From a candidate division FCPU426 bacterium (GTDB lineage: Bacteria > Oederibacteriota > Muellerivitia > Muellerivitales > Muellerivitaceae), in contig CAVYSE010000009.1 in the NCBI GenBank assembly GCA_963771075.1, positions 1 through 64,000 on the forward strand: a DNA stretch of 64,000 bases, read 5' to 3'. The notes beneath the pieces were generated by a model. It saw nothing but the letters and a program-made list of their open reading frames with translations, did no database searches and was not told where the DNA came from. How positions within the stretch are numbered: the stretch's first letter is position 1; each line of letters begins with the position of its first letter. Both the position numbers and the translations under genes were made by a program. This document shows positions 1-32,183 of this stretch, in pieces.

Positions 1-27
1 TCCGCGACCGACGAAAATAAGGGTTTT

Positions 28-1620: not shown

Positions 1621-1867
1621 AACAATTCTTTAAGCACTTCAAGAAAAGATCCAATTACAAAGAAATAATTTTTATGCTCTTGCCTGCTCATGGCGGCGGC
1701 TCCGAAAACGACCCCTTCAACCCGCCCTGCAGGGCGGTACGGCTGGTCGCGCCGTGAGGGAAGCGGTTGTTTTAGCGGCCAAACTAGGGTGTCCACTAAA
1801 TCGGGGAAGTCCACATGACCAAAGGGGGTAAAATAGTCGTTATAGGGTTGCTATGAGGCCATTCCTC

Positions 1868-2050
1868 AAGTTCAATTAAGCCCACCCGTCAGCCTTTTGG
1901 TTTCGCGGATTCACGCTGCTATTCGTGCTCGAGGCACAAGTTAAAAATTCGATAATCCAGTAGGGAAGCCACCAGCTGTCCATCGTGCCTTACGGCACCA
2001 CCAAATTCCGTGGTCATTCCAAAGGGATCGAATCACAAAACCGAGGCTGA
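1868..2050 (-). ncRNA. Putative bridge/seek RNA of the IS1111-type element
   Basis: Non-coding ~200 bp downstream of the transposase. Contains TGTCCA (1977-1982, matches the target from the core) and CTGCTAT (1916-1922, matches the predicted circle junction ...ACC-TG-CTATG). Boundaries are approximate. Confidence 0.55.
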
Positions 2051-2057
2051 AACCTCT

Positions 2058-3128
2058 TTAGCGCATGGGCCGATACACTTCCTTCCGAACCAACATCGTC
2101 CAAAGGTGAATCAAAAGCTTGTGCGCCATTGCCACAATCGCCTTGTTGACGTGTCCCGTATTACGGACCAGTCGACGAAAAACACGGTAGGCCTGGGTAT
2201 CCTTTTGGATCCATGACCAGGCCGCTTCAACCAAGGTCGCTCTCAAAGTGCCTTTTCCGGCCTTCTGTAAATGGCCTTCCTTCCGGGTTTCACCGCTTTG
2301 CCTGATCCTAGGGGCCAACCCCACGTAAGCCGCCACTTGTTTGGCGTTTTCAAAGCGTTCCGGCTGGTAAATCTCCGTTAATACTTGCAGGGTCGTCACT
2401 TCGCCCACTCCTGGGTGGGTTCTCAGGATCTTGGCCTTTTTCTCGTAGGCCTTCTCCTTCATCATGACCCTCAAACGTATGTTCACGTCCTTGAGCTGCC
2501 TATCAAAGTAAAAAAGATCTTCCAATAGGCGATCCAAGGTGAACCTCAGGGCAGGTGGCAGTTCCATTTCCCGTAATATCCCAATGGCTTCGTGGGTCCA
2601 GTAATCCAACCCTCTGGGAGTTTTGAGCCCATATTGAAGGAAGAAGCTCTTGATCCTTTGTTTGGCCTTGCGTTTCTGCTCGACCATCGCGTTCCTCAAA
2701 CGAACCACCTGCCGGTCAGCTTCTTCCTGGAGGGTTGGGATCGCCACCGCCTTCAGCAATTCTTTCTCCGCATACTCCGCCAGTTTGCTACAGTCCAAAC
2801 GGTCGGATTTTGTTTCAAACTGCGACACGCGAGGAGTCTTGTGCGGGGCGATGACATCCAATGGGTATCCCTCCTCCCGAAGGCGGCGGGCCAGGCCAAA
2901 ACCGGTAGGGCCTGCCTCGTAGACGACCTTTTTCAACCCCACCCGATAAGGCGCCAGGACCTTCACCACCGCCTCCCAGTCCGCTGTCAGGGACTTTGTT
3001 CCGACTTCCTTTCCGTTAATCCTGATTGCCATATAAATACTTCGTTTGTGGACATCCAATCCCACAAACACAGCGTCCCGCTTGGATACCTCCTTGCCTC
3101 GGTATCCTTTTTTGCTAATCTGTTTCAT
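2058..3128 (-). CDS. IS110-family transposase/recombinase (DEDD RuvC-like plus C-terminal Tnp domain)
   Basis: Motifs FVGLDVHK, YEAGPTGF, KSDRLD, HPGVG, AAYVGLAP..QSG. A GGAGGA RBS precedes the ATG at 3128 (alternative start 3134). Confidence 0.93.
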   Translation of the reverse strand: MKQISKKGYRGKEVSKRDAVFVGLDVHKRSIYMAIRINGKEVGTKSLTADWEAVVKVLAPYRVGLKKVVYEAGPTGFGLARRLREEGYPLDVIAPHKTPRVSQFETKSDRLDCSKLAEYAEKELLKAVAIPTLQEEADRQVVRLRNAMVEQKRKAKQRIKSFFLQYGLKTPRGLDYWTHEAIGILREMELPPALRFTLDRLLEDLFYFDRQLKDVNIRLRVMMKEKAYEKKAKILRTHPGVGEVTTLQVLTEIYQPERFENAKQVAAYVGLAPRIRQSGETRKEGHLQKAGKGTLRATLVEAAWSWIQKDTQAYRVFRRLVRNTGHVNKAIVAMAHKLLIHLWTMLVRKEVYRPMR

Positions 3129-3203
3129 GGCCATTCCTCCTTGTGAGTTGCCTGCTCACCGGGACTAGTTTAATCCCGGCGGAGGAATGGCCTTCATGTT
3201 ACC

Positions 3204-3232
3204 TGTCCACGACGGGGACCCAGAGTGGACAA
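3204..3232 (+). repeat. 30-bp palindromic site R1 (left edge interrupted by the IS)
   Basis: TGTCCACGACGGGGACCCAGAGTGGACAA. Confidence 0.9.
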
Positions 3233-3250
3233 GTAAAAATAGGAAATTAA

Positions 3251-3676
3251 ATGAAGCGCGACATACCAAAAATCAAATACATCTCCCGAAACCAAAAAGA
3301 ATTCGGGAAAAAACTTCTTCACAAGTTATCGGCCTTCAACAAAAGCAAGGTGGGTGATGTTGGTTGGATGAGTCTAAACCTAGAGATGGTCGATAAGAAC
3401 GGGAAATTCATGGGTGGTCTCACCGGGTCCAGTTTTTTGTGATGGTTTTACGTGGACATCCTTTTCGTGGATGAGAAATATCGTGAGCAGGAAATCGGGA
3501 AAAGGCTTCTCCGAGAGGCCGAAACTTGGGCGAAGAAAAATGGATGCCGAAACATTAATTTGAACACAATCACTTTCCAAGCACCGGGATTTTATCGAAA
3601 GATGGGCTACTGGGTTTTTGGAAAATTAATCTATCCCAAGGGAAATGTCAGATACTATTTTAAGAAAAAGCTATAG
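3251..3676 (+). pseudogene. GNAT-family acetyltransferase with in-frame TGA at 3440-3442
   Basis: ORFs 3251-3442 and 3452-3676 share one frame: GGLTGSSFL*WFYVDILFVDEKYREQEIGKRLL...FQAPGFYRKMGY, with GNAT motifs A and B. Confidence 0.8.
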
Positions 3677-3677
3677 G

Positions 3678-3707
3678 TTGTCCACGACGGGGAGGTGGAA
3701 TGGATGA
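3678..3707 (+). repeat. 30-bp site R2 (left half intact, right half degenerate)
   Basis: TTGTCCACGACGGGGAGGTGGAATGGATGA, 1 bp after the GNAT stop codon. Confidence 0.75.
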
Positions 3708-3780
3708 TGCTCTAAGTGTTAGGGTTTAATATTCTCGCGCTACGGGGCAGTCAACGGAATGTTTGAAATCATCCCCGGCT

Positions 3781-5955: not shown

Positions 5956-6026
5956 GCGTATCTAGACGTTTGAGCGGATTGTTGCGTGTCAATGCTTAAG
6001 CGGAGTATTTATCCTGCATAGGGCAT

Positions 6027-6057
6027 AAAAAAGCCGAACGGCTTAGGCCGTCCGGCT
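6027..6057 (-). terminator. Intrinsic terminator after 6081-6455
   Basis: Stem GCCGAACGGC-ttag-GCCGTCCGGC next to an A6 run (U-tract on the minus strand). Confidence 0.7.
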
Positions 6058-6080
6058 CGCTGAAAAAGTTTTGCTGCTGG

Positions 6081-6455
6081 TTATTGAGGAATGACGCCGT
6101 TGTTCGCGGCCAGTTCGTCGTTAATCGCCTGGAGTTGATCGGGGGTCAAACCCTTGGTGCCGCTTTCACGGTTTTCCTTAAAGTCGGCCCGAATTTCTTC
6201 CTCGATCGATTTCAACTTGTCGTTGAGCGGGGCGGCGGTATCGGCGGTGAGTTTGCCGTTCTTCAGATCCGCCGCAATGAGCGCTTTTTGTGACTTGATC
6301 TGTTCGTGGATTTTCTCCATGACAGGATTTTTCTTCCAGGCGTGAGTCGGTGTGGTGCTGGCGGCAACGGGTGTGGAATCCTGCGCTAGAGCCAGACCGG
6401 TAGAGCCTATCAACAACAATGATGCGGCAAACGAAACCAAACGTTTCATGATCAT
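6081..6455 (-). CDS. Secreted helical hypothetical protein
   Basis: Signal peptide ending ALA-Q; GGAGGA RBS; followed by a terminator. Confidence 0.75.
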   Translation of the reverse strand: MIMKRLVSFAASLLLIGSTGLALAQDSTPVAASTTPTHAWKKNPVMEKIHEQIKSQKALIAADLKNGKLTADTAAPLNDKLKSIEEEIRADFKENRESGTKGLTPDQLQAINDELAANNGVIPQ

Positions 6456-6842
6456 TCCTCCAAAAATTATTTATTTTCCGGCTTATACCGTTTAGACGAA
6501 ACTGCCTTTTAAAAGGACTCGAAATCAAAGTTAAATTTATTCCTTTCACTTGGGCTATCAAAATGGGAATGGAACCCATTCAAGTTTTATCATCGGAATC
6601 ATCATCGGTAAGAGCCGGAAAGATATTTTTTAATGAATTAAGTATTCTCGTAACGGCTTAGATGCCCATGCGTCTAAATAACATTCAACCAACTGATAAA
6701 TATTTTTAGGAAAATTTATTGAGAATCTGAAAGCCCCTTTTATCCCCGGCCGAATCGTAAGGGCGATTGCCTTTAACTCGATCTATTCCGCTTGTTACGG
6801 AAAAAGACTCTCTTGAAAGGAGAATACCTTGAGTAACGAAAC

Positions 6843-7151
6843 ATGAGTAAAGACGAAATCTTTCTTGTTGGTTTTCTATATGTCCTCGTCATCCTCATCA
6901 GCGTTTCGATATCATCTTTTGGGAGCCAAGCCGCTTCACTTCCCTGGATAAAAACCCTGGTGATTCGGTTGAAAGAGCCGGTCTGTCAAGAGGGGCAACC
7001 CGAAAGGGTTACAGTCAAACCTGATCATTTGGCGCTTCTTATCCCAAAACCTGTTCACGGGTTACGGAAGACGTTTGCTTTACCGCAAACGAGTTTAAAC
7101 ACCGTAAAAAAGATTCCCGCCAAAACGGAAACCACAAAGACTGATACTTGA
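6843..7151 (+). CDS. Hypothetical protein with N-terminal TM/signal segment
   Basis: 102-aa ORF with a hydrophobic N-terminus; ends 56 bp before site R3. Confidence 0.45.
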   Translation: MSKDEIFLVGFLYVLVILISVSISSFGSQAASLPWIKTLVIRLKEPVCQEGQPERVTVKPDHLALLIPKPVHGLRKTFALPQTSLNTVKKIPAKTETTKTDT

Positions 7152-7207
7152 AAAAACCAAATAAAATTAGTAATTTGGCAATCGGATGGTGAATAAGGTT
7201 TGACGCT

Positions 7208-7237
7208 TTGTCCACGACGGGAAGTCTTAGTGGATAA
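7208..7237 (+). repeat. 30-bp site R3 (degenerate, isolated)
   Basis: TTGTCCACGACGGGAAGTCTTAGTGGATAA. Confidence 0.7.
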
Positions 7238-7427
7238 GCCCTTCAAAACCAATGCTTCGAAAAATGAGAAAATTGACCGCGCTTTCCCACCTTTCAAAAA
7301 ATGGATGACATGTCGGTTTCAGGTCATAAAAGTGCTTATTTTAAAGGACCACATCTGGCCTGCGCGACGTCTAAACGTTTGATCCGCGGAAACGCATCCA
7401 ACCTTCTTTTTTGAAAGAGGCAAGAAG

Positions 7428-8717
7428 ATGAATAGATTAACTATGGTATTACTGGCGATTTTTCCTTTCGCCGGGTTCGCTGTTTGGGCCGCGGAGCGGG
7501 AGGGGGGTGCTCCCGCCATGAGACCTGCTGCAGTCAGCCGGCCCGCGCCAGTGGCTCGACAACCTGTGGTTATCAATATGAGCCATGGTTCTAGCGGCGG
7601 ACAAAACCGTAATTTTCCCTCTCAACAACCCCAGATGAACAACCGGCAACCGGTTAACCCGCAACCTTCCTATGGTCAACTGCATTGGAATAACCAAGCC
7701 GCGGCTAGGCCCCCGCTTCAAACGCAAACTCAAGCCAATATCAAAGAAGGTGCGGTGTCGGGTACGGTTTATCAAAGGCCGAGTGTTCAAAATTATTCTC
7801 AGACAGGTGTCAGGGCGGCGGTCGCAGTTCATCACCATGCCTATGCCCAGGGTTATGTGCGCCAGAAATTACAAAAAATGGGTGTCAGCTCCGAGCCCAG
7901 TCTAATTACGGATCGTGCTGAGATGATGAATACGGATAAAACTCATTCCATTATTCGTTTCCCGCAAAAAGGCGCGGATCATCAGCCGATTACCGCGGCG
8001 GTTGTCTCCCCCCGTCATTTTAACGACGGTGTTGTCCGCGATAACATGAAACTGGTGAACAGTTCCGAGTGGCAAAACCATATAAATGGTTTTAATAGTA
8101 CTGAAAATCAAGTCGGTCATTACTATTGGCATAGCGACGAGGGGATCAACTATTGCCATTATCTTGATGCCTCCGGTTACAACTGGTACGGTTGGTATGC
8201 GGGCGACCAATATTTTTGGACCCGCAACTTCAATGGCCGCTGGTGGTGGTACGATTCGGACTTTAACCGCTGGTGCTTCTGGAACAATGACTTCTGGTGG
8301 TGGCAGGACCCCAACCACGTCGGCGACCTGTACTGCTACAACAATGACAATTATATCCCCTCTAACTCCGCCGAGGATCAGGTGGTGGTGACGGCTTCCA
8401 GCGACGCTAATATGCGGTCCATCCCCAGTTCGGATGGAACCCGAATCGTCAAACTGGATGAGCAAACCCAGGACGCTTTCCTTTATGACACTGCGAACCC
8501 GCCGAGTTTTGACCCGGTTTATCTGGCCTCCGGCGTTGAAAGCGTGGAGTTTTCGGATACGAGCAACGGCAGGCCGATGGAAATTATCCTGAAACTTAAC
8601 GACGGGTCTTTTGACCTGTTTGACGCCAAGGGGAACGCCTACAATCCTGGTCTATTGGACGCCGACGAGGCCAAACAGGGCGATACGCCCCCCGCTTCCG
8701 CGCAAACTGGCAGTTAG
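7428..8717 (+). CDS. Secreted hypothetical protein with Trp/Tyr-rich repeat region
   Basis: Signal peptide; Gln/Asn-rich linker; aromatic repeats HYYWH, YNWYGWY, RWWWYD, FWWWQD; acidic C-terminal domain. Confidence 0.8.
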   Translation: MNRLTMVLLAIFPFAGFAVWAAEREGGAPAMRPAAVSRPAPVARQPVVINMSHGSSGGQNRNFPSQQPQMNNRQPVNPQPSYGQLHWNNQAAARPPLQTQTQANIKEGAVSGTVYQRPSVQNYSQTGVRAAVAVHHHAYAQGYVRQKLQKMGVSSEPSLITDRAEMMNTDKTHSIIRFPQKGADHQPITAAVVSPRHFNDGVVRDNMKLVNSSEWQNHINGFNSTENQVGHYYWHSDEGINYCHYLDASGYNWYGWYAGDQYFWTRNFNGRWWWYDSDFNRWCFWNNDFWWWQDPNHVGDLYCYNNDNYIPSNSAEDQVVVTASSDANMRSIPSSDGTRIVKLDEQTQDAFLYDTANPPSFDPVYLASGVESVEFSDTSNGRPMEIILKLNDGSFDLFDAKGNAYNPGLLDADEAKQGDTPPASAQTGS

Positions 8718-8794
8718 TGACTTAGTTCTTAGGCTAGGATTTTATGGAGAGCCACTGACCAAGGGCTTCGACCACAGAGGACAGCCGCCCTTTT

Positions 8795-9109
8795 TCATAT
8801 TTTGATGTCAATGTGGGGGGTGGGGGAAAAAGGTGGCATGTCCTCTGGATCAGAAATTTTCTGCTTCTCCCCATCGGATTCATTTCTTGAGTCCTTTTCT
8901 GGATCGGCCCACTTGGAATGGGAACCCGAACCGCCTTGGGGATTGTTTTTGGCTTTGGATACTTGGTCCTCAAATTTTCGGATTTTTTCAGTGGCCTCGG
9001 AATCAACTTTGATTTGTTTGTGTTTTTGGTCAGCGTTCAAGGCCGCCAGAAGTTCGGCCTCCGTGGGGCCCAGGGATTTAAGATAATTCGCAATGTTATG
9101 AACGTGCAT
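8795..9109 (-). CDS. Hypothetical charged protein
   Basis: 104-aa ORF with plausible composition, ending HIDIKI; CGTCTA motif 6 nt upstream of the ATG. Confidence 0.55.
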   Translation of the reverse strand: MHVHNIANYLKSLGPTEAELLAALNADQKHKQIKVDSEATEKIRKFEDQVSKAKNNPQGGSGSHSKWADPEKDSRNESDGEKQKISDPEDMPPFSPTPHIDIKI

Positions 9110-9466
9110 GTCGTTTAGACGCTTCCCATGGATTAAACCAGCATTGGAATTTTATATCTTTTTGCCCTGCCCTTGTTTTTATAACCGGTCTTATTTCGCG
9201 GCTTTTTTTAAATAACCTGCTTTTCCGTTTCTCGAGGGACTGAATGCCCTAAAAGTCCGCTTGGATAGACTTTACTTTTGGCTTAAGGCGGGGGAGGGAA
9301 AGTTGTCCATTCCAAGGAGGTGGATTGGACAGACTAAAAGGGACTCGAACCTAATCTAATTAGGAACTTTTCGTGAAAACCGCAGGATTTTCACTTATGT
9401 CTTCCGCCCTTTAATTCAAGTTTCTCCAATCCTATTATTAATTAAATTTCACCCCGGGGAAAAGGA

Positions 9467-11143
9467 GTGCCTCGGCATTTCGCCGCCATCGTGGCAAGAG
9501 GCATTCCTGTGCAAAAAACAAATCCCCATGTTCTTTTCATTTATCCCCATTTCACCGCCCGGTCCTTCTGGAACTTCAAGGAAACCTGCGAACTGGTGGG
9601 CCGCAAGTATCCCACCTCGCCCTTAGGGCTTATCACGGTCGCGGCCATGCTGCCCCCGGCCTGGCCGGTGAAGCTGGTCGATTTGAATGTCCAAAAGCTG
9701 ACCAAGGCCCACGAACAATGGGCCGACCTGGTCTTTATCGGTGGGATGATTTTCCAGCAGCCCGACCACCTGAGGCTTATCCGCTATTTTAATTCCCTGG
9801 GAAAGAAGGTTGTGGTCGGGGGACCAGACCCCACTTCCAGCCCCCATCTTTATGACGAGGCCGACTGCCTGGTTTTGGGCGAGGCGGAAGTGACTTTCAA
9901 CCAGTTCCTGAATGACTTCCAGGCGGGCAAGACCCGTCACCTTTATTCGCCGGGCGATCAAAAGGCCGACATGCGAAAAAGCCCTCTCCCGCGTTTTGAG
10001 CTTTTGAATTTTAAAAACTACCTCCACGTCGGCATCCAGTGGAACCGGGGATGCCCGTTCCTGTGCGAATTTTGCGACATCATCGAGCTTTTCGGGCGGG
10101 TGCCCCGTGGCAAGGGAGTCGGCCAAGTGCTGTTGGAATTGCGAAAGCTTTACAGTCTAGGTTACCGGGGCCACGTGGAAATCGTGGACGACAACTTCAT
10201 CGGCAACAAGAAAGCGGTCAAGGAACTTTTGCCCCACCTGGCGGCCTGGCAGAAGGAAAAAAACTACCCCTTCGACTTCTCCACGGAGGCTTCGCTCAAC
10301 CTTTCGGATGACAAGCCCCTGATGAGTATGATGCGCCAGGCGGGGTTCTCCTGGATTTTCACGGGGATCGAAACCCCCGACGAAGAAACCCTGAAGTCCA
10401 CCCATAAACTCCAGAACACCCACCGATCCATCGCCGAAAGCGTGCGCCAGATCAACCAATACGGCATGGTAGTGCACGCGGGTTATATCGTAGGTTTCGA
10501 CCAGGATATCCCCGGGTCGGCCCAGGCCCTGTTGAAAAGTATCGAGGACACTTCCATCCCCGTGAGCATGGTGGGCCTTTTGTACGCCCTGCCCAATACC
10601 CAATTAACTCGGAGGCTTAAAAAGGAAGGGCGGCTGGGGGCATCGTTCGACGTGCCAGTCGACCAGGCGGCCTGCCAATGCACCACGGGACTGAACTTCA
10701 CCACCCTGAGGCCAAGGATGGATATATTGAAAGAATTCCACCGAGTCATCTCGGAATCCTTCTCAGCCGAGAAGTATTTTGGCCGGGTTAGACGTCTGGC
10801 CTTGCAGTTGAACTGCAAAGGAAAAAAACTGAATCTGCCGCTGTCCAACCGCCTGAGAGAAGCCCGGGCCTTTTTCATCCTGCCCTTCAAGATGGGATAT
10901 CAAAAAGGATTAAGGCGCCTTTATTTCAGCGTGATTTTCACCTGTCTTTTTCGGAATCCGCGGGCGTTGAACAAAGCCATCTCTCTCATGGCTCTTTACC
11001 TGCATTTCGGCAAGTTCCGGGGCGAGGTCCTCGCGCGGCTGGATAACGAGATCGGCCTGTTGAAACGCGAGGCCGAAACCGCCCAGCGCCTCGCCGCCCA
11101 GGCGATCCGGGAAAGAATGCCCCGGCCTAACCCAGTTTTGTAA
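9467..11143 (+). CDS. Cobalamin-binding radical SAM protein (DUF4070-type C-terminus)
   Basis: PLGLITVAAMLP and VVVGGP B12 domain; RGCPFLCEFC CxxxCxxC motif; DDNFIGN; GIET. The real start may be GTG at 9509. Confidence 0.9.
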   Translation: MPRHFAAIVARGIPVQKTNPHVLFIYPHFTARSFWNFKETCELVGRKYPTSPLGLITVAAMLPPAWPVKLVDLNVQKLTKAHEQWADLVFIGGMIFQQPDHLRLIRYFNSLGKKVVVGGPDPTSSPHLYDEADCLVLGEAEVTFNQFLNDFQAGKTRHLYSPGDQKADMRKSPLPRFELLNFKNYLHVGIQWNRGCPFLCEFCDIIELFGRVPRGKGVGQVLLELRKLYSLGYRGHVEIVDDNFIGNKKAVKELLPHLAAWQKEKNYPFDFSTEASLNLSDDKPLMSMMRQAGFSWIFTGIETPDEETLKSTHKLQNTHRSIAESVRQINQYGMVVHAGYIVGFDQDIPGSAQALLKSIEDTSIPVSMVGLLYALPNTQLTRRLKKEGRLGASFDVPVDQAACQCTTGLNFTTLRPRMDILKEFHRVISESFSAEKYFGRVRRLALQLNCKGKKLNLPLSNRLREARAFFILPFKMGYQKGLRRLYFSVIFTCLFRNPRALNKAISLMALYLHFGKFRGEVLARLDNEIGLLKREAETAQRLAAQAIRERMPRPNPVL

Positions 11144-11186
11144 CAACGGGTCTTAATCTCCGCGAAGCTGCGGTGAACGGGAAAGT

Positions 11187-11216
11187 TTGTCCACTCCACG
11201 GACCCAAAAGGAACAA
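11187..11216 (+). repeat. 30-bp site R4 (degenerate; first site of the array)
   Basis: TTGTCCACTCCACGGACCCAAAAGGAACAA aligns to the consensus without gaps. Confidence 0.65.
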
Positions 11217-11256
11217 TATTAGGAAGCAAAACTATTATTCGAGTTCGACCTAGGGA

Positions 11257-11643
11257 GTGTTTGTGATAAAGAATGTTTCTGAAATTTTTGTTTCCGACTT
11301 AAGTAAAAAAGTAATACTGTTTTTTATATGTTCATGGGGCGAGACTTTATCGATCTTTTTAATACTGGGAAATTTTCATCCGAAGATATTGGGAGCTGTT
11401 GTTATATTACTAGCGTTATTAATTCAATATATTTTTCTTACAGTTTCGAAAATTAATGATAACGGCAATTTTTATATAAAACTTGGCATTTCTTTATTCA
11501 TCCCTGTTAAATATTTCTTGATGGGATTATTTGCATTGTTACTACCAGAGGGGATGTTTTTATTTGGCGCATATTTTTTCTCAATGATTGCGGGATTTGT
11601 TTTCCTAAATATAGGCGCAAGAAAGAGTTTGAAGAAAAAATAA
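11257..11643 (+). CDS. AT-rich small multi-pass membrane protein (cassette 1)
   Basis: About four hydrophobic segments; the TAA stop directly abuts site R5. Confidence 0.7.
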   Translation: MFVIKNVSEIFVSDLSKKVILFFICSWGETLSIFLILGNFHPKILGAVVILLALLIQYIFLTVSKINDNGNFYIKLGISLFIPVKYFLMGLFALLLPEGMFLFGAYFFSMIAGFVFLNIGARKSLKKK

Positions 11644-11673
11644 TTGTCCACGATAGGGACCCATCGTGGACGA
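11644..11673 (+). repeat. 30-bp site R5
   Basis: TTGTCCACGATAGGGACCCATCGTGGACGA. Confidence 0.92.
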
Positions 11674-11692
11674 TGTTTTCAAGGGGATATTG

Positions 11693-12169
11693 ATGAAAAA
11701 ATTGATTCTTTTATTTGTTTTAATTTTGGGCTTTTCCGTCGCAGCGAATGCGACGAGTATCAAGCCAACCGACCTTTCGGTTCTTGTGACCCAGGCGGAC
11801 TATATCGTCGTGGGTAAAGTGGTGAAGATGGATATGATCGACGCAAATGGCCAGGAAATCTTCGACAAGAAGGCCAGAACAGGGCCGCGCTCGGGAAAAA
11901 TGATTCGCTATTTCGTTGCCGTGGATCGAAAGAAGACTCTTAAAGGTGACATCAAAAAGATTCCTCAGAGTCTTGTCCTTCCAGATTGGCCCATGTGGAT
12001 CAGGGGTATTGACGGTATGAAAGAGATGTATGAAGGTAAAAACTGTATTTTTCTCTTGGGAGCCCCTAATTTATTTCCTAAACCACAATCTCAATTTGTA
12101 AGGGATATTTCTGAAAAAAGTGAAATCGTAAGAATCCTTAGGTCGGAACACCGAAATACAAATCATTGA
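11693..12169 (+). CDS. Secreted hypothetical protein (cassette 2)
   Basis: MKKLILLFVLILGFSVAANA signal peptide after an AAGGGG RBS; LVTQADYIVVGKV resembles TIMP/OB-like hypothetical proteins. Confidence 0.75.
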   Translation: MKKLILLFVLILGFSVAANATSIKPTDLSVLVTQADYIVVGKVVKMDMIDANGQEIFDKKARTGPRSGKMIRYFVAVDRKKTLKGDIKKIPQSLVLPDWPMWIRGIDGMKEMYEGKNCIFLLGAPNLFPKPQSQFVRDISEKSEIVRILRSEHRNTNH

Positions 12170-12172
12170 GGT

Positions 12173-14149
12173 GCAGAGTAGAGCGCTGGCGCGTATGCCT
12201 TAGAGTACGGTGGCGAATCCAACCCTTTCGGATTGGGCCTCAGTCCGGCTCTCATCACCACGTTTCCAGCGCCCCCTCATCAAACCGTACGTGACCTTTT
12301 CGATCATACGGCTTTCCGACAACCTTTCAACCGGCAGCATTCAAGGCAAAAGCTGGAATCCAGTTCAAACCAAGGCGTTTCACTTCCTCGATCGACCATG
12401 TTCGTCCTTCCCAGGCGTACTTATGCCTCCGAAACAAAGTCAGCCTTTCGAGTACGTAAAATTGAAGCTTGGAAAAGTATGGCTGGCTGTCCCCAATTCG
12501 GAAATAGTTGGCCCACCCCCTTAACACCGGGTTCAAAGCCTTCGCTACATCCTCCATTGGAGATAAGAGCCGCTCTCGGCCCGCCGTCATCTGCTTCACT
12601 TTCTCGGCGATTTTCTTCATGGCCTTCCGGCTCGGCCAGCTCAGGCAACAGGTCTTACCCAATCCTACCACCGGCATACCTACTCGAAAGTGGAACCCAA
12701 GGAAGTCAAACCCTTCCTTCCCAGGCCCCATTTCCACCAGCCGTGTCTTTTCGGGGTGCAGTTCAAGCCCTAGTCGTCCCATCAATTCCTTGATGACTTC
12801 CAGGCTCTTTTCCGCATGGGCTTGGCTTCCGCACAACACCACAAAATCGTCGGCGTAGCGCACCAGCCTACCCAGTTTCCTGTGCCTCTTATTCCAAACC
12901 TTGTCCAGCAAGTGAAGGTAAACATTGGATAACAGCGGTGAGATCACCCCGCCTTGCGGTGTCCCTCGGAGAGTCGGCGTAAGCCTTCCTTCCTCAAACA
13001 CACCCGCCTTCAGCCACCCTCGGATCAGTTTCAAAACCTTCCGGTCACTGATCCTCTGGCGCACCAGCACCATCAGTTTGTCGTGGTCGATGGAATCGAA
13101 ATACTTCCGAATATCTCCATCCACCACCCATCTGTACCCGCCATTGATCCACTTCTTGATCTCCCGGTGGGCCTGCTGGGCTCCGCGTTTTGGCCGAAAT
13201 CCAAACGAGCCTTCCAGAAAGTCCGCCTCAAAGATGGGTTCCACCACCTTCCGGCAAGCCGCTTGAACTACCCGATCCCGAATTACCGGGATTCCCAACG
13301 GTCTCTTGCTTCCATCAGGCTTGGGTATTTCCACTCGTCTCACAGGTTTAGGCAGATACTTCCCAGCTTTGAGTTCTTCCTGGATGCCCTTCAGGAATGG
13401 AATAATTCCCACCTTCTCTTCGATCCATTCCAGCGTTTCCCCGTCCACTCCTCCTTGGCCTTTATTAGCCTTCACCTGTTTCCATGCCGCTGTCAGGACA
13501 TCCCATCGGGTCATCCTGTCATGCAGTACATGAAATCTCCGGCTTGGGCTCCTCTTGGCCGCTCGGTATAGCGCCCTTTGAAGGGTTCGCGCCTTGTCTT
13601 CGGAGTTGTTGGCCCTTTGGGGCATGCTCCAGCGCCTCCCTTTTGAAGGTTGCTTGGTTGAAGCAGGGGTCCTTCCCTCCAGGTGGTTTTGTTGTCCACC
13701 CTTCACAGGTATTGTGACCCCCTCCGACTTCCTCCCGCCCTTGCCCCTTTTCGGTTTTAGCCTTATAGCGGCAAGTCTTTTGGCGGGTAGGATCTCCCAG
13801 GTTGCTTGCAAAGCCTTTCCAGCATTCCGTTCCCCATACGCCGGAGGACTTGCCCCGCTTGCTCCAGATTCTTCAGCGGGATCGTGGCCTTCGCCGGTAG
13901 ACACGCGGCTCGGCATCCTCTTGCACCTTTCGGTGTCCCATTCACGACGCGGCAGGATTCACTTGATGTTGCGGACTGCTAGATTGTTCCCTCACTGAAT
14001 GAGGTTTATGACCCCGTTTCGGGCAGAACCTCTCGGTCCTACGCCGGGGGCTGACTTCCAGGCTCTCTGGCGATTACCTGGTCAGGATTTGGGCTGGCCC
14101 TCTTCGGCCTACTCCCTCACCTGCTGGCTCTACAAACCTTCGCTGGCAC
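12173..14149 (-). mobile_element. Group II intron (IIB-like, probably bacterial class E/F)
   Basis: 5' end GTGCCAGCG at 14149. Domain V GAAAGCCGTATGATCGAAAAGGTCACGTACGGTTTG with AGC triad, just after the ORF. Domain VI closes ...CCAGCGCTCTACTCTGC(AC). The 3' end is at 12173 or 12171. Confidence 0.85.
12327..13625 (-). CDS. ltrA: Group II intron reverse transcriptase/maturase, no endonuclease domain
   Basis: IPKPDGSKRPLGIP, GTPQGGVISPLLSN, RYADD, GFDFLGF, LRGWANYF (domain X). Start taken at MPQRANN. Confidence 0.93.
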   Translation of the reverse strand: MPQRANNSEDKARTLQRALYRAAKRSPSRRFHVLHDRMTRWDVLTAAWKQVKANKGQGGVDGETLEWIEEKVGIIPFLKGIQEELKAGKYLPKPVRRVEIPKPDGSKRPLGIPVIRDRVVQAACRKVVEPIFEADFLEGSFGFRPKRGAQQAHREIKKWINGGYRWVVDGDIRKYFDSIDHDKLMVLVRQRISDRKVLKLIRGWLKAGVFEEGRLTPTLRGTPQGGVISPLLSNVYLHLLDKVWNKRHRKLGRLVRYADDFVVLCGSQAHAEKSLEVIKELMGRLGLELHPEKTRLVEMGPGKEGFDFLGFHFRVGMPVVGLGKTCCLSWPSRKAMKKIAEKVKQMTAGRERLLSPMEDVAKALNPVLRGWANYFRIGDSQPYFSKLQFYVLERLTLFRRHKYAWEGRTWSIEEVKRLGLNWIPAFALNAAG

Positions 14150-14150
14150 G

Positions 14151-14180
14151 ATGTCTACGATGGGGACCCATAGTGAACGT
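14151..14180 (+). repeat. 30-bp site R6 (adjacent to the intron 5' end)
   Basis: ATGTCTACGATGGGGACCCATAGTGAACGT. Confidence 0.88.
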
Positions 14181-14217
14181 CGAATCGTAAAAAAACGTTC
14201 AAAGTTAGGATGTATTA

Positions 14218-14544
14218 ATGACGAATAATGACTACTTGGAACATTTCAAGAATATGGATCGTCTCGTATTAAAATTTCTAATTACATTCATTCTGTGGCC
14301 CGTCATAACATTTTTTATAATGGAATTAGCCACAAGGTTGGGTTTTGGTAAGTTTGGTTCCTTTTTTATTGCGATGCCTTTTTTTATTTATTTCGCCGTT
14401 CAATGTGTTATTGCGAAAGAAAAATATTTACGGATCTTATGCCCGAGATGCGGACAAAGTTTTTTTCCTTTTTTCAAATTAAATCCTTTTAGACGTGTGT
14501 GTAGTTATTGTGGTCTGAAGAATGAAAAGAAGATTGAAGAGTAA
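14218..14544 (+). CDS. AT-rich two-TM protein with C-terminal CxxC...CxxC zinc ribbon (cassette 3)
   Basis: Two hydrophobic helices, then CPRC...CSYC; stop 13 bp before site R7. Confidence 0.75.
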   Translation: MTNNDYLEHFKNMDRLVLKFLITFILWPVITFFIMELATRLGFGKFGSFFIAMPFFIYFAVQCVIAKEKYLRILCPRCGQSFFPFFKLNPFRRVCSYCGLKNEKKIEE

Positions 14545-14557
14545 GTGCGTATAAAAG

Positions 14558-14587
14558 CTGTTCACGATGGGGACCCGTCGTGAACAG
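14558..14587 (+). repeat. 30-bp site R7 (perfect arms with compensatory changes)
   Basis: CTGTTCACGATGGGGACCCGTCGTGAACAG. Confidence 0.9.
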
Positions 14588-14599
14588 TGGTTACAGGTT

Positions 14600-15550
14600 C
14601 TAAACCAAATATTTCCTGAACCAATCCCTCTCCGCCTTGAAGGCGTCCTCAAAAAACGCGCCCTCGTAAACGTCGTAATGCCCAGCGCCCTTGACGATAT
14701 GCAGGCTCTTGGGTTCCAGCGCGTTCCCAAACAGCGAGTGGGATTCCTGGACCGGGTTGACCTCATCCTTTTCCGCGCCCACAATCAAAATGGGAATAGC
14801 GACCTCCTTCAACCTTTGTTCCGGGTGGTATTCCAGCGTGTGCCTGAGGAACGAAATGGAAATCTTGGATTCCAGCTGGGGAAATTCCTTCACGGACCTG
14901 GCGAAAAACGCCTTGGATTGGGGGTCGGTTAAGAGGTTGTCGATGGGAAGCATCATGGGTTTGCCCTTCTGCGTTTCCCTTTGCCAGGCCTTGGTGAGCA
15001 TAGAGGATAACTTTTCCTTCTGTTGCGGGGTTTGCCCGCCGGTGATGACCCTTTCCCCATCGCCGAAGGAGATCTGGGCCACCAGGCACTTCACCCGCTT
15101 ATCCTGCGCGGCGGTTTCGATGACGTTCGCGCCCCCGTAGGATGTCCCCCAGAGGCCTATTTTTTCCGGATCCACTTCCGGCAGGGTTTCGGCGAAGGTG
15201 ACGGCGTTTCGGATATCGCGCACCTGTTCCCTCCAGACGAGCTGGCCCTTGTCACCCCCGCTGGCCCCGAACCCCCGATAGTCAAATACCAGGGCGGCAA
15301 AACCATTTTCAGCGAAGGCCCGCGCGAAGGCGGGCAAAAGCAGTTCCTTGAACCCCGCGAAACCGTGGCACAGGATCACGCAAGGCCATTGGGAGCCGGG
15401 CGTTGGGCCCACGGGCGAAGGGCCATCGGGCGAATGCCCGTCGGACGAAGGGCCATCGGACGGATGTCCATCGGGCGAATGCCCGTCGGGAAGGTAGAGA
15501 TGGCCCTGGATGAGGCTGGTTTCGGAATAAAACTGGATGTCCCGGCGCAT
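14600..15550 (-). CDS. Alpha/beta-fold hydrolase
   Basis: LCHGFAG, FDYRGFGASGG, nucleophile elbow GTSYGG, D...GAGH. A GGAG RBS precedes MRRDIQ. Confidence 0.88.
   Translation of the reverse strand: MRRDIQFYSETSLIQGHLYLPDGHSPDGHPSDGPSSDGHSPDGPSPVGPTPGSQWPCVILCHGFAGFKELLLPAFARAFAENGFAALVFDYRGFGASGGDKGQLVWREQVRDIRNAVTFAETLPEVDPEKIGLWGTSYGGANVIETAAQDKRVKCLVAQISFGDGERVITGGQTPQQKEKLSSMLTKAWQRETQKGKPMMLPIDNLLTDPQSKAFFARSVKEFPQLESKISISFLRHTLEYHPEQRLKEVAIPILIVGAEKDEVNPVQESHSLFGNALEPKSLHIVKGAGHYDVYEGAFFEDAFKAERDWFRKYLV
15413..15487. repeat. In-frame 5 x 15-bp tandem repeat
   Basis: Units gggcgaagggccatc / gggcgaatgcccgtc / ggacgaagggccatc / ggacggatgtccatc / gggcgaatgcccgtc. Confidence 0.9.
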
Positions 15551-15708
15551 AGGTTTCTCCCCAAAAGAATTGGAACCGCAAATTGCAAGACCCCCGCATG
15601 AAATCGGGGGAAAAACACCGGACAAATTTAACACGACTATTAACAGCCGCGAAACCTTCGAATCAAGAAGGCGACTAAGATCAACCCATCCCTGAGCGGG
15701 GAGGTGTT

Positions 15709-16701
15709 GTGATGAAGCTTCAAATCGCTAACCCTTCCGACACTTACAATCACATGGTAAAACCCAAGATCAACGACCTCATCCACCGCCTGATGGCGCC
15801 GGTGGCTCCCGTGGAGCCGACGGTGGCCTGCGGCGAGGTCTATCGGCTGTTCGCCGAGGACCGGTCGGTCCAATCCATCGCGGTGGTTTCGGGCGATGCC
15901 CCCATCGGGCTGGTCAACCGTTTCGCCCTGATCGACCGCTTTTCCCGCAGGTTCTTCCGGGAAATCTACGAACGCCGGCCCATCACGGCCCTGATGGAAA
16001 AATCCCCCCTGATCGTGGACTGCGGAATCGGGCTGGACGACCTGAGTTCCATCATCGCCGACGAGGAGGAAAAATACCTCTTCGAGGGCTTCATCATCAC
16101 CCAGGAGGGCAGGTACCTGGGCATCGGCACGGGCCACCGCCTCATCAAGGAAGTCACCGAGCGCAAACAGGCCCAGCTTTACCACCTGGCGCACCACGAC
16201 ACCCTGACCGGATTGCCCAACCGCCTGCTCTTTTTCGACCGCCTGAGCCAGGCCCTGACCCAGTCCGACCGGTCTTCCAAGTCCCTGGGGGTGCTTTTCG
16301 TCGACCTGGACCATTTTAAGAAGGTGAATGATACCTACGGCCACCCCGTCGGGGACCTCTTGCTCAAGGAGGTCGCCCAATGGCTTCAACTTTGCCTGAG
16401 GGAGGGGGATACGGTGGCCCGGCAGGGAGGGGATGAGTTCACGGTCATCCTGACCGACCTCTCCGACCCGCAGGACCTGGAAAGGGTCTGCCAAAAAATA
16501 CTCGGCGTTTTCGCCATGCCCTTCAAGATATCAGGCCACGACATTTCGATCACTTGCAGTATCGGCGCCAGCCTATTTCCCAGGGATGGGGATGAAATGG
16601 ACCCTCTCATCCAAAAAGCCGACACGGCGGTTTACCTGGCCAAACAAAACCGCAATTGTTACCGGATTTACGAAGGCCAGGGAATTGAAAGGGCTAACTA
16701 A
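15709..16701 (+). CDS. CBS-like plus GGDEF diguanylate cyclase
   Basis: HDTLTGLPNR, DLDHFKKVNDTYGH, ARQGGDEF, RxxD I-site (REGD). Confidence 0.9.
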   Translation: MMKLQIANPSDTYNHMVKPKINDLIHRLMAPVAPVEPTVACGEVYRLFAEDRSVQSIAVVSGDAPIGLVNRFALIDRFSRRFFREIYERRPITALMEKSPLIVDCGIGLDDLSSIIADEEEKYLFEGFIITQEGRYLGIGTGHRLIKEVTERKQAQLYHLAHHDTLTGLPNRLLFFDRLSQALTQSDRSSKSLGVLFVDLDHFKKVNDTYGHPVGDLLLKEVAQWLQLCLREGDTVARQGGDEFTVILTDLSDPQDLERVCQKILGVFAMPFKISGHDISITCSIGASLFPRDGDEMDPLIQKADTAVYLAKQNRNCYRIYEGQGIERAN

Positions 16702-16978
16702 TTGGTCGCTTTGCAAAGTTATCCCCCCCCCTTCCCCCATGCCCCATTGGAAAGAATGACATGGGGCATGGGGACGTCCCCATTTCATTTTTTAATACTT
16801 AATGGTGAACTGGGGGTGAAAAAGGGAGGAAGGGGGGTATTAGCTTTTGTTGTGTAACACCCAGAGGCTAACTCCCCCTTTATCCCCCTCTTTCAGAGGG
16901 GGGAAGATTAAAAATTAAACCACAGGTGCATTGCGCATAAGCATGCGCAATTCAAGACCTGATCCCTTCGTTCGAAAC

Positions 16979-17012
16979 AAAAAAGGCCCCAGCTGGATTT
17001 AGCGGGGGCCTT
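16979..17012 (-). terminator. Intrinsic terminator after tpx
   Basis: A-tract plus GGCCCCC...GGGGGCC stem. Confidence 0.65.
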
Positions 17013-17040
17013 CCCTATAAGTCTCTATTAATGCTTAAGC

Positions 17041-17547
17041 CTATGCCAAGGCGGCGCGGAGGGCCGCGTCGTAATTGGGCTCTTCGGTGACTTCTTTCAC
17101 GATTTCGACATGCTTCACCTTGCCGTCCTTGCCGATGACAAACAGGGAACGGGCTTCCAGGCGCAGTTCCTGGATGTGCGTCCCGTAGGCGTCGCCAAAG
17201 GACATGTTCCGGTGGTCCGAAAGGGTCTGGATCTTGATGTTTTCCGCGCCGCAGAAACGGGCCTGGGCGAAAGGCAGGTCGGCGGTGACCGTGACCACCA
17301 CCACATCCGCGGGCAGTTTGCCGGTTTCCTGGTTGAACCGGCGGGTCTGGATGGCGCAAACCGGCGTATCCAGCGAGGGGGCCACGGAAAGGATGAGGGT
17401 CTTCCCCTTGAACTGGTCCAGGGTGACGTCCTGGAGGCTGTTGTTTAAAAGCTTGAAGGCGGGCGCCGTATCCCCCACCTTGATCTCGGGTCCAATCAGG
17501 GTCAAGGGCCCGCCCTTAAAAGTAATCACGCCTTTTCGTTCTTGCAT
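17041..17547 (-). CDS. tpx: Thiol peroxidase (atypical 2-Cys peroxiredoxin)
   Basis: PSLDTPVC, DLPFAQARFC, EPNYDAAL. Confidence 0.93.
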   Translation of the reverse strand: MQERKGVITFKGGPLTLIGPEIKVGDTAPAFKLLNNSLQDVTLDQFKGKTLILSVAPSLDTPVCAIQTRRFNQETGKLPADVVVVTVTADLPFAQARFCGAENIKIQTLSDHRNMSFGDAYGTHIQELRLEARSLFVIGKDGKVKHVEIVKEVTEEPNYDAALRAALA

Positions 17548-17914
17548 GGAAATCTCCTTTGGAAAATCAGTTCACAGCTGGCCCAAATTGATATTCGCAA
17601 TTTGGATTACCCAATCCCACCCCTCGGCTTGTGGCCTCGTGGTAGGTAACAGTTGGCAGCCCACAGAAATAAAAACCAAGCCATAGTTTTATACAGACCT
17701 GGGGTGAAGAAAATAAAGCCTGACTTAAAATAAAAAAGCCCGCCCCAATTGCCCTAAGCAATTGGGACTACCAAGGCCCGCTATTCGCCTTGTAGGCTCA
17801 TAGCAGGTGGCAATTCGCAGCCCGTTCGGCTCACACCATTCGCTCAAGACTTGTCGGCAGCTAGGTTTTTAAAGACTTCCCTGCGGACTGTGGACTGCGG
17901 ACTGCCAACTGCCT

Positions 17915-19003
17915 TTAGATATATTCTTTGTAGATCAGGTACTCAGCCACCAATATTCCGCCCTTGGCGGCGCCCATCTTGGTGTTATGGGACACCAGCA
18001 TGTATTTCACCCCGTTGGCCAGGGCGTGGTCCGCGCGGACGCGCCCGACGGAGGTGACCATGCCCCCCAGGTTGTCCCGGTCCAGCTTGGGTTGGGGACG
18101 GAAAGGGTCCTCCGTAACATCAATCAATCGGGGAGGGCATGTCGGCAAGTTCAAACTGATAAAACCCTTGTCTCCCTTGCCCCAATCCGACATGGCTCGC
18201 TTCACCTGGTCTATATTCGCGTTTTTTTTCAACGAAACATAAACCGCCTCGGTATGGGCTTCCAAAACCGGTACCCGGGTACAGGTGGCCGAAACCGGGA
18301 AAGCGGCGTCTCGGATGCCCTCGCCCTCGAAAACCCCCAGGATCTTCTGGGTTTCCTTCTCAACCTTCTCTTCTTCCTTCGGAATATAGGGGATCACGTT
18401 GTCGATGATATCCAGCGCCGCGACTCCGGGCGAGCGGCCCGCGCCGGAACAGGCCTGCATGGAGGTCATCAGGACTTGTTGGATGCCAAAGTGCTCATGA
18501 AGGGGTTTTAAGGTCATGGCCAGGCCGGTGGTGGTGCAGTTGGGCACGGGGGTGACGAAACCTTTCCAGCCCCTGTTCTTCTTCTGGACGGAGATGAGGC
18601 GGTCGTGGTCCTCATTGACCCCGGGGATGAAGATGGGAACGTCCTTCTCATAACGGAAGGCGGAGGCGGTGGACACGACCGGGGTGGTCTTGGCGTAGCG
18701 GGGTTCCAGGTCCTTGGCGGCGTCCGATTCCACGGCGGTGAAGATCAAATCCACGGTGGAGGCGTCGAGCTTCGAGGCGTCCTGCACGGTTATTTTGGCG
18801 AAGGCCGGGTCCAGGGGTTCCTGGCAATACCAGCGGAAGGCGCCGGAGGCGTCGGTGATGGCGTCCTTATAAACCTTGCCCGCCGAACGCTCGCTGGCGG
18901 CCAAAGCCACCACCTCGAACCAGGGATGGCCCGAGAGGGAGGCCAGGAACTGCTGGCCCGCCACCCCCGTGGCGCCGATGACCGCGACTGTTTTCTTTTT
19001 CAT
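17915..19003 (-). CDS. asd: Aspartate-semialdehyde dehydrogenase
   Basis: GATGVAG, PNCTT, CTRVPV, SHNTKMGAA. Confidence 0.92.
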   Translation of the reverse strand: MKKKTVAVIGATGVAGQQFLASLSGHPWFEVVALAASERSAGKVYKDAITDASGAFRWYCQEPLDPAFAKITVQDASKLDASTVDLIFTAVESDAAKDLEPRYAKTTPVVSTASAFRYEKDVPIFIPGVNEDHDRLISVQKKNRGWKGFVTPVPNCTTTGLAMTLKPLHEHFGIQQVLMTSMQACSGAGRSPGVAALDIIDNVIPYIPKEEEKVEKETQKILGVFEGEGIRDAAFPVSATCTRVPVLEAHTEAVYVSLKKNANIDQVKRAMSDWGKGDKGFISLNLPTCPPRLIDVTEDPFRPQPKLDRDNLGGMVTSVGRVRADHALANGVKYMLVSHNTKMGAAKGGILVAEYLIYKEYI

Positions 19004-19130
19004 GGTTAAACCCCCGTGAATAATGGACCGGCCCGGCCGGGAATGGCATGCAAGATAGCATATTTGGGCCGGGTTTCAATTAAAACGGCGGGGGGGGTAC
19101 TGTCTCAATTTGAAGAGAAAACTTTATTTC

Positions 19131-19303
19131 ACCCTCACCCCAACCCTCTCCCGTCGAGGGAGAGGGAGAAAAAAACATTAAAAACCCTCGCCCCTGGTGG
19201 GAGAGGGTATGCCGACCTTCCATGAAGCTTTACAGAAGTCGGTATGACCTCAAATATCCTTTGAAATATTTTCAAATATGAAATTTGAGATAGGGTGAGG
19301 GGT
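19131..19303. repeat. Intergenic palindromic element (CCCTCACCCCAACCCTCTCCC...GGGAGAGGG type)
   Basis: Two CCCTCTCCC/GGGAGAGGG hairpins with outer arms ACCCTCACCC and GGGTGAGGGGT; a partial copy lies near 29747-29771. Confidence 0.6.
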
Positions 19304-19352
19304 GAACCTTATGGCGCCTTAATAACCAAACTGAGACACTACCGGCGGGGGG

Positions 19353-20045
19353 CTAGGGAATCTCGGTTTTGGAACTGGATTCGTAAACCTTCTTCTTCAC
19401 CGCGACGTCAATGAAACAAAGGTAGATGCCCGGCGGCATGGGACGGTTCTGTTCGTCCTTGCAGTCCCATTTGAATTCATGGGTACCCTTGGCCAGGAAA
19501 TCGGGGCTGTCGACCTTATTGAACTCAAAAGACCTCACCAGCCTGAAACCGGAGGAATAGACTTTCAGGTAGACCTTTTCCGCCGGGATATTGACCTTCC
19601 ACTTAAAACTGATTTTCTTTTCCGAGTCGGGTTTCGGGGAGATCTTGAACAGGGCCACGCCGGGGGTCACCGTGGGCGTGGGGGTGATGGTGGGGGTACG
19701 GGTGATAGTGGCGGTGGGGGTGCCCGTTTGGGTGGGGCTTCGGGTGATGGTTGGGGTATAGGTTTTAGTCGGGGACCGGGTAATCGTGGGGCTGAGCGTG
19801 ATCGTGCGGGTAAAGGTTAAGGTGGAGGTCGGCGTGGGCGTCCAGGTGGCGGGCTGGGTGCCCGTGGTGGTGAGGGTGGGCGTGAAGGTGGGGGACGCGC
19901 TGGGGGTAAGGGTAGCCGTGAGGGTGGGCGTAAGGGTTAGGGTCGGCGTCGCAGTCGGGTTCGTCCCGGCACCCCAGGCGCCGTTCACCCAAAGGCACAA
20001 CCCGATCCAGAGAGCGACCTTCATCCGTAACCGGCCCCGATCCAT
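19353..20045 (-). CDS. Secreted Thr/Pro-rich protein with C-terminal FlgD Ig-like domain
   Basis: Signal peptide, (TPT)n stalk, KVYSSGFRLVR...WDCKD...PPGIY. Confidence 0.8.
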   Translation of the reverse strand: MDRGRLRMKVALWIGLCLWVNGAWGAGTNPTATPTLTLTPTLTATLTPSASPTFTPTLTTTGTQPATWTPTPTSTLTFTRTITLSPTITRSPTKTYTPTITRSPTQTGTPTATITRTPTITPTPTVTPGVALFKISPKPDSEKKISFKWKVNIPAEKVYLKVYSSGFRLVRSFEFNKVDSPDFLAKGTHEFKWDCKDEQNRPMPPGIYLCFIDVAVKKKVYESSSKTEIP

Positions 20046-31715: not shown

Positions 31716-32183
31716 GTGATGAAGCAGAAATGGTCTAAAGAAAAGATCGTAGAGACAATTAAGGATTTACAGCGCCAATCCATAGACATCTCTGCGAGCA
31801 ATATCTCAAGGAATTACATACCCCTTTTCACGGCTGCCTGCTCCAGACGTTATTTCTCCAGCTGGGCCAACGCCGTAAAAGCCGCCGGGATTGATTACGA
31901 TCAAATTTTGGAAGCTGGTAAGGCTCGTCGCCGCAAGAAACTTACGAAATGGTCGAAAGAAGAGGTTTTAGAACAGGTACGGTTAGCGGAATCAAAAAAC
32001 CTTTTAACGACTTATCGGGATCGTTTGGCCCTCTATTCAGCCGCCCGCCGGGAGTTTGGGAGTTGGAAACAAGCCTTGGAGGTCGCAGGCTACCGCCTGA
32101 CAAAGGGTGCCCATAAAAATTCAAATCAAATATTCAAAAAGGAAGAGGCTGCCGCCTTAAACCAGGCCCCTTCCCTCTCTTAA
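31716..32183 (+). CDS. Protein of two homing-endonuclease-associated-like helical repeats (putative DNA binding)
   Basis: WSKEKIV...YFSSWANAVKAAG and WSKEEVL...EFGSWKQALEVAG; strong AAGGAGG RBS. Confidence 0.75.
   Translation: MMKQKWSKEKIVETIKDLQRQSIDISASNISRNYIPLFTAACSRRYFSSWANAVKAAGIDYDQILEAGKARRRKKLTKWSKEEVLEQVRLAESKNLLTTYRDRLALYSAARREFGSWKQALEVAGYRLTKGAHKNSNQIFKKEEAAALNQAPSLS

Follow-up and report, generated by a model that had tools for sequence, protein, structure and literature searches.

What kind of array is formed when short genes alternate with near-identical palindromes, and which enzyme could move them? The question is raised by a 64,000-nucleotide stretch (hereafter, the window) at positions 1 to 64,000 of contig CAVYSE010000009.1 (assembly GCA_963771075.1), from a candidate division FCPU426 bacterium whose host family, Muellerivitaceae, is uncultured and comes from peat and soil. 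An initial annotation described four 30-bp palindromes (here R4 to R7) alternating with three open reading frames (ORFs) as a cassette system unlike integrons. We have little doubt that such arrays are real and mobile, and that they are built on a site other than attC. As to the enzyme, sequence evidence leads us to assign a probability of roughly two in three to a short serine recombinase as the driver of the cassette system.

The four sites and three ORFs lie where the initial annotation placed them and in the same order, with agreement between a repeat search and an ORF list. The 30-mer comprises a 28-bp core plus one flanking base per side, and all four cores read 13-GA-13 on the + strand. 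Relative to the cores, stops precede the next site by 1, 2 (intron removed), and 14 bp and starts follow the previous site by 41, 20, and 38 bp, which bears out the little space seen at first. Cassettes 1 and 3 are indeed AT-rich (GC 0.30 and 0.33, genome 0.53), and cassette 2 has a GC of 0.42. One short ORF per interval holds for the three cassettes but not for the interval 9304-11188, which carries a 558-amino acid radical SAM gene that is probably a larger cassette. Likewise, R5 and R7 are palindromic as described (fold z of -3.9 and -5.5), but R4 and R6 are poor palindromes (z of +1.05 and -0.12). The claim of a single orientation extends further than was drawn: the array comprises eight co-oriented sites (window 3204-14586), including upstream sites at 3204, 3679, and 7209 and a degenerate one at 9304. 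The repeat search (window 1-30000) recovered seven copies and a profile search added the degenerate eighth.

The consensus, TGTCCACGAYGGG-GA-CCCRTCGTGGACA, is a 28-bp palindrome with 13-bp arms around an asymmetric GA. With an iterated profile, 99 copies are found in the studied genome and none in a block-shuffled version at the same threshold. They form many short arrays, with mixed placement on leading and lagging strands (skew is weak). The left 15 bases of the site are present in 28 of the 30 other genomes of the family and in the one other genome of the order, and elsewhere in the phylum in 2 of 67 genomes with one match each; the left 18-mer has no exact match in viral contigs. Sites of 19 relatives were taken from array regions picked by pattern matches rather than from whole genomes, using a symmetric arm profile and calling orientation from the centre alone. 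This gave 630 sites, 604 of which have GA/TC at the centre. Genome-wide scatter in random orientation, named initially as evidence that would speak against cassettes, is not what is seen: 80 of 90 oriented sites have a neighbor within 6 kb (∼20 expected) and 443 of 449 neighboring pairs are co-oriented. The arms are not equally conserved. The consensus match is 1.00 at position 13 versus 0.83 at its mirror, position 16, and conservation drops from position 15 to position 16. The polymorphic positions 10 and 19 vary independently (p=0.67; one contig counted twice), hence the arms are not maintained as one hairpin. Right-arm variants resemble the antisense of a tRNA T-arm, with the best match, picked after the fact, being 14 of 18.

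Units between sites behave as cassettes. Of 312 units measuring 200-1600 bp, 296 have their longest ORF in the forward direction, and the median distance from stop to next site is 18 bp (one contig counted twice in both); the median unit length is ∼0.8 kb. A sample of 100 ORFs drawn from 289, compared to Pfam, included by our count 43 without a Pfam family, 24 of toxin-antitoxin types, and 4 GNATs. A comparison of 443 cassettes yielded 33 pairs, belonging to 25 families, that align over their full length at 80% or more. Content is thus shuffled rather than invariant, as the initial annotation had proposed: both neighbors are changed in 29 of the 33 pairs, and 21 pairs are between genomes. A 388-bp cassette is identical in the studied genome and in G024, and a 1217-bp cassette is identical at two places in G004. 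A pair on contig C26 with both neighbors identical is a local inverted duplication. That region (G000:C26:138321-143721, G000 being the studied genome) holds three cassettes in inverted duplication, either a rearrangement or an assembly artefact.

A moving unit keeps half of each bounding site: the right half of the one upstream and the left half of the one downstream. In pairs of at least 95% identity, differences in upstream sites number 15 on the left and 1 on the right (5 and 0 after removal of one intron-broken site), and differences in downstream sites 3 on the left and 22 on the right. Counted as events, left differences are found in all 4 informative upstream comparisons (one also differs at position 19) and right differences in all 7 downstream comparisons. 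Because upstream sites differ on the left and downstream sites on the right, the exchange point is near the site centre, and linkage maps it to between positions 11 and 16. Hybrid sites were examined separately, the only selection criteria being an exact 11-bp arm and a far hexamer that is foreign (n = 23; 6 insertion-broken sites excluded). Their last matching position is 15 in 13 of the 23, 16 in one, 17 in none, and 12 in three. An earlier tally, in which 58 of 90 breakpoints fell at position 15, presupposed a GA centre and is not relied on. Base 16 is G in 14 of the 23 hybrids, often forming a GGAGG-type ribosome-binding motif, and such motifs may be capture points of new cassettes.

The recombinase was expected to lie outside the window, and a candidate is found on contig C8. 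The genome encodes eight tyrosine recombinases and a single serine recombinase, the sole match to PF00239. The gene of the latter terminates 14 bp from an array's last site, and three 5'-truncated copies adjoin the last sites of other arrays. Four further family genomes (G004, G020, G024, and G044) have an intact gene with a site 34, 36, 8, and 14 bp past its stop, respectively; hence each of the five full-length genes found in the family is followed by a convergent site at 8-36 bp, and one metagenome locus likewise has a site past the recombinase stop. At loci of other, mostly long relatives, sites were found in 0 of 48. In a protein search, 19 clusters of 275-283 amino acids share 68-96% identity, followed by a gap to 61% or less. 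The short proteins (n = 20) form one clade (SH-aLRT 99 in a quick tree of 75 of 121 rows), and all 20 end ahead of the zinc ribbon present in long relatives. Their catalytic motifs are invariant, including an intact serine motif, and five genes show purifying selection (dN/dS of 0.02-0.06 in the catalytic and 0.10-0.25 in the recombinase domain, with unsaturated dS). The initial annotation had parsed the site as an 11-8-11 target of a tyrosine recombinase. That reading is disfavored by the conservation step after position 15, by hybrids that break after GA, by the serine enzyme at terminal sites, and by the different site of the one Xer-like protein.

Long relatives in the same family that are adjacent to tRNA-Gln are 56% identical to the candidate; the closest long relatives in the family and order (L012 and L013) end inside the antisense of tRNA-Gln. 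Far ends of the islands of long relatives were looked for and none were found. No clade member is among 32 viral relatives (best full-length identity 58%), and the 138 plasmid records that match are all below 60% identity. Around the intact gene and its array (G000:C8:72000-92000, locus L001), genes for ArdC, RadC, and DUF2958 mark a conjugative or mobilizable island. Near 32100, 42240, and 90560 of C8 and near 19150 of C12 there is a repeat of 37-50 bp whose ends are inverted TGCACA. Copies lie around this island and where one recombinase copy is truncated; the repeat is possibly the end of another mobile element.

The proposed enzyme would be a derivative of large serine recombinases that retains only the catalytic and recombinase domains, in 275-283 amino acids. 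A dimer would bind a site with each subunit on one 13-bp arm, and a tetramer would pair any two sites and exchange strands at the GA. The distinction between attP and attB would be gone because the zinc ribbon and coiled coil are missing, and orientation would be fixed because the central GA is non-palindromic. From directly repeated sites, a cassette would leave as a circle with one site and reinsert at another. Most arrays, including that of the window, have no recombinase gene; they would depend on an enzyme supplied in trans or lie dormant. Loss by excision would be limited by toxin-antitoxin cassettes. In a study of the LI integrase (PMC3783163), the recombinase domain spans 13 bp beside the crossover and a coiled-coil deletion supports excision at all four site pairings tested. 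The 13+2+13 geometry of the site would fit that footprint. On balance, we lean toward a second, independently evolved integron, derived from a tRNA-targeting large serine integrase by loss of the zinc ribbon and coiled coil. It would be direction-free, use one 28-bp site, capture and shuffle single-gene cassettes across the family, do so at GA-containing pseudo-sites that often resemble ribosome-binding sites, and have intron and insertion sequence (IS) parasites of its own.

Several observations weigh against the short recombinase as the driver. Its intact gene is present in 5 of 31 family genomes (16 candidates scored per genome), and an intact gene or 3' remnant beside a site in 10 of 31, versus 29 of 31 for the left 15 bases of the site. 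Four genomes that have sites (G002, G003, G005, and G008; 90-99% complete) have no match to PF00239; arrays often break contigs, which bears on genomes without a resolvase domain. Sites with a good left and poor right half outnumber the reverse by 131 to 16, which a symmetric reaction does not predict. Position 9 or 10 also differs in 3 of the 7 informative downstream comparisons, and 6 of the 23 hybrids match through position 18 or later. In the LI integrase, the zinc-domain deletion binds DNA poorly and the coiled-coil deletion fails to integrate (PMC3783163), so a natural short enzyme would need compensating changes. Neither circles nor a recombination reaction were observed in the read data, which consist of short contigs. 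Site joints in four peat and permafrost runs match on one side over 27-29 letters only; those letters are the repeat itself, and therefore neither circles nor shuffling are shown by them.

The most durable alternative, which we consider unlikely, is that cassettes are mobilized by another family-wide protein or by a single-strand or reverse-transcription process, with the short recombinase targeting or riding on the sites. Sites are far more common among genomes than the recombinase gene, and the left/right asymmetry together with left arms joined soon after stops (median 18 bp) suggest a one-sided step. The sites are already parasitized by two intron types and IS110, and there is precedent for an integrase that targets repeats, as a Vibrio cholerae repeat serves as the chromosomal site in an assay of the PLE1 integrase (PMC6002521). 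On the other side, exchange is placed at the centre, as predicted for a serine enzyme; no site lies on the far side of the short gene in any locus read, and the fit of arm length to the recombinase domain would be a coincidence. The PLE integrase itself has a zinc ribbon.

Less likely still is that the single Xer-like protein (G000:C6:114198-115235) recombines the site as 11-6-11, in the manner of XerCD with Acinetobacter pdif sites. Its distribution matches that of the site (23 of 24 family genomes, the one genome of the order, and 0 of 15 others at an E of 1e-40), as would that of any core gene, and from genome to genome its presence follows the site more closely than that of the serine recombinase. 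The parse is valid, spacer mismatches are tolerated in pdif recombination (PMC13141974), and a tyrosine route with 4-bp homology at the exchange point is possible. But the Xer-like gene has its own 11-6-11 palindrome, containing TATAA-N6-WTATA, just 5' of its start. This palindrome is found in 16 of 17 genomes and in degenerate form in the remaining one; its arms covary, and cassette sites are absent from its surroundings. Moreover, hybrid sites break within the would-be spacer. Since this upstream palindrome, probably the dif site, is unrelated to the cassette site, the alternative is weakened, and so is the initial expectation of a co-occurring tyrosine recombinase as the cassette enzyme. 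The protein scores under all XerC, XerD, and IntI cut-offs. A second Xer-type palindrome with a different spacer is found near 14581 of contig C12, in a mobile region that also holds a gene for a coupling protein.

It is very improbable that the palindromes are repetitive extragenic palindromic (REP)-like repeats or terminators that owe their spread to a Y1 transposase, with the genes in between being no cassettes. Y1_Tnp has 20 matches in the genome (and 1 in 100 cassette ORFs) and good copies of the site fold as hairpins, but sites are clustered with a shared orientation, identical cassettes have new neighbors, a T-rich tail is present at only 34 of 604 sites, and positions 10 and 19 show no compensatory pairing. 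The movement of cassettes with half-site linkage largely refutes this reading. A very short, atypical attC of an integrase-less integron (CALIN) is barely tenable despite the integron-like layout, toxin-antitoxin content, and intron and IS parasites, because IntI was not found (best TIGR02249 score of 41.8 bits versus a cut-off of 265, in a genome that is 96.7% complete), core sites are missing (RYYYAAC...GTTRRRY encloses 5 of 598 sites versus 1 of 427 controls, and 0 of 8 in the window, in line with the initial annotation), the 28-bp length is too short relative to the 57-141 bp given for attC (PMC3053210), and exchange is at the centre rather than at the hairpin foot.

The system works like an integron but is not one. 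Like integrons and CALINs, it has co-oriented, mostly single-gene cassettes with stops beside sites, many toxin-antitoxin and unknown genes, and arrays without an enzyme; group II introns at sites recall group IIC-attC introns (PMC3001079). Unlike integrons, it has a 28-bp site without core sites or extrahelical bases, a central exchange, no IntI, many short arrays of 2-13 sites in each genome, and a candidate serine recombinase whose gene faces the array from its downstream end. SCC and SCCmec elements share an enzyme of the large-serine-recombinase family (CcrAB or CcrC) that excises tandem units singly or together between att repeats, but those units are 17-26 kb, at one locus, and with full-length enzymes (PMC11470126), whereas here units have a median of ∼0.8 kb, in many arrays, and the candidate stops after the recombinase domain. 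Acinetobacter pdif modules likewise have 28-bp sites that bound small, shuffled accessory modules and are targeted by IS elements beside sites (PMC13141974; PMC10132070). There, sites alternate in orientation, XerC and XerD arms differ, and the 6-bp spacers vary, whereas cassette sites have one orientation (6 of 449 opposite), near-identical arms, and a fixed centre. The likeness of pdif to the host dif has no parallel here, as the dif-like palindrome beside the Xer-like gene (its dif role is inferred) is unrelated to the cassette site. Phage-type serine integrases such as that of LI/A118 share the catalytic and recombinase domains but have a zinc ribbon, a coiled coil, and attP and attB (PMC3783163), in contrast to neither domain and one symmetric site here. 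In literature covered mainly through listings and the openings of abstracts, with few subscription papers, no published description of such a design was found, consistent with the initial claim that the system is undescribed.

Features are collected below. The ORF at 3251 may be GNAT-like, judging from its motif. The start of cassette 2 is an ATG, and its longest frame begins at 11666. The cassette 2 protein matches Atlas clusters of hypothetical proteins at 0.95-0.96 and has a homolog in another family genome (G023:C203; 69% DNA match). Cassettes 1 and 3 have no match among 416 cassettes or in the family matches listed, and a zinc-ribbon match in cassette 3 is weak and under the cut-off.

Features of the window array and of loci on other contigs of the studied genome (G000)
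Feature	Position	Strand	Basis or remark
Conserved array head; holds a TAAAAT hexamer and additional arm-like half-sites	1790..1848	+	
IS110-family element at outer edge of first site; transposase 2058-3134	1849..3203	-	NF033542, 243 bits (cut-off 140)
Cassette site, first of array	3204..3231	+	Repeat and profile search
Cassette ORF, one in-frame stop	3251..3671	+	Frame translation; GC 0.405
Hybrid site; left arm and GA perfect, remainder divergent	3679..3706	+	Profile search
Site, centre AA, divergent right arm; probably decayed	7209..7236	+	Profile search
Degenerate site	9304..9331	+	Profile score 17.5
B12-binding radical SAM gene	9467..11143	+	Pfam; stop 44 bp ahead of site
R4; left arm degenerate, right arm of the type adjoining recombinase gene elsewhere	11188..11215	+	
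Cassette 1 ORF, 128 amino acids, hydrophobic	11257..11643	+	No Pfam family above cut-off
R5	11645..11672	+	Good palindrome
Cassette 2 ORF, 158 amino acids, signal-peptide-like start	11693..12169	+	No Pfam match
Group II intron with reverse transcriptase/maturase (ORF frame 12327-13916), outer edge of R6	12172..14151	-	
R6	14152..14179	+	Poor palindrome
Cassette 3 ORF, 108 amino acids, two hydrophobic stretches, C-terminal CxxC...CxxC	14218..14544	+	
R7, last site of array; convergent hydrolase gene next	14559..14586	+	Good palindrome
Short serine recombinase, 277 amino acids; gene convergent with array	G000:C8:80002-80835		PF00239 and PF07508 above cut-off
Xer-adjacent palindrome	G000:C6:114166-114193 (L066:6167-6194), and loci L211-L226		Conserved upstream of Xer-like gene

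The array is headed by a 530-amino acid ORF without a Pfam match (window 28-1620), parts of which recur on at least eight other contigs. The head sequence is also found immediately upstream of the first site on contigs C21, C3, C13, and C5, and, as a lead from sequence, is a possible platform or promoter. A -10-like hexamer precedes 13 of 70 head sites and 23 of 317 inner sites, and no + strand promoter was found in 11100-14700. The junction of the IS110 element is defined by comparison to the IS-free head on C21, and a second copy adjoins a site on C5.

The intron matches RF00029 and RF02003 above gathering scores and TIGR04416 at 422 bits; across window 1-20000, intron families alone exceed Rfam thresholds. 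Its boundary is ambiguous by 2 bp. Ten full-length copies are at least 99.3% identical, and all 12 intron junctions are at a site edge, on the outside of the right arm in 8 and of the left arm in 4. The intron ends depart from the usual GUGYG...AY, with additional bases shared by every copy at either end. In G020, G021, and G044 (loci L067, L121, L122, L130, and L137), another group II-like element, with a 5' GTGCG, interrupts the site at the junction of positions 11 and 12. A small palindromic insertion is located mid-site, between two partial site copies, near 347235 of contig C3 and near 136855 and 73654 of C26.

To our knowledge, integrons are the one well-known means of stocking and reordering single-gene cassettes. 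Arrays like that of the window would be missed because tools detect integrons by IntI and attC. If the proposed mechanism is true, a natural 277-amino acid enzyme acting on a symmetric 28-bp site shows how far serine recombinases can be pared down, which is notable because an engineered zinc-domain deletion binds poorly, and such a short recombinase could be a compact tool for genome engineering. With hundreds of sites whose ends are young and hybrid, the birth of cassettes becomes testable in a second system. For the family, the cassettes amount to a reservoir of accessory genes, of which 43 in a sample of 100 have no Pfam family.

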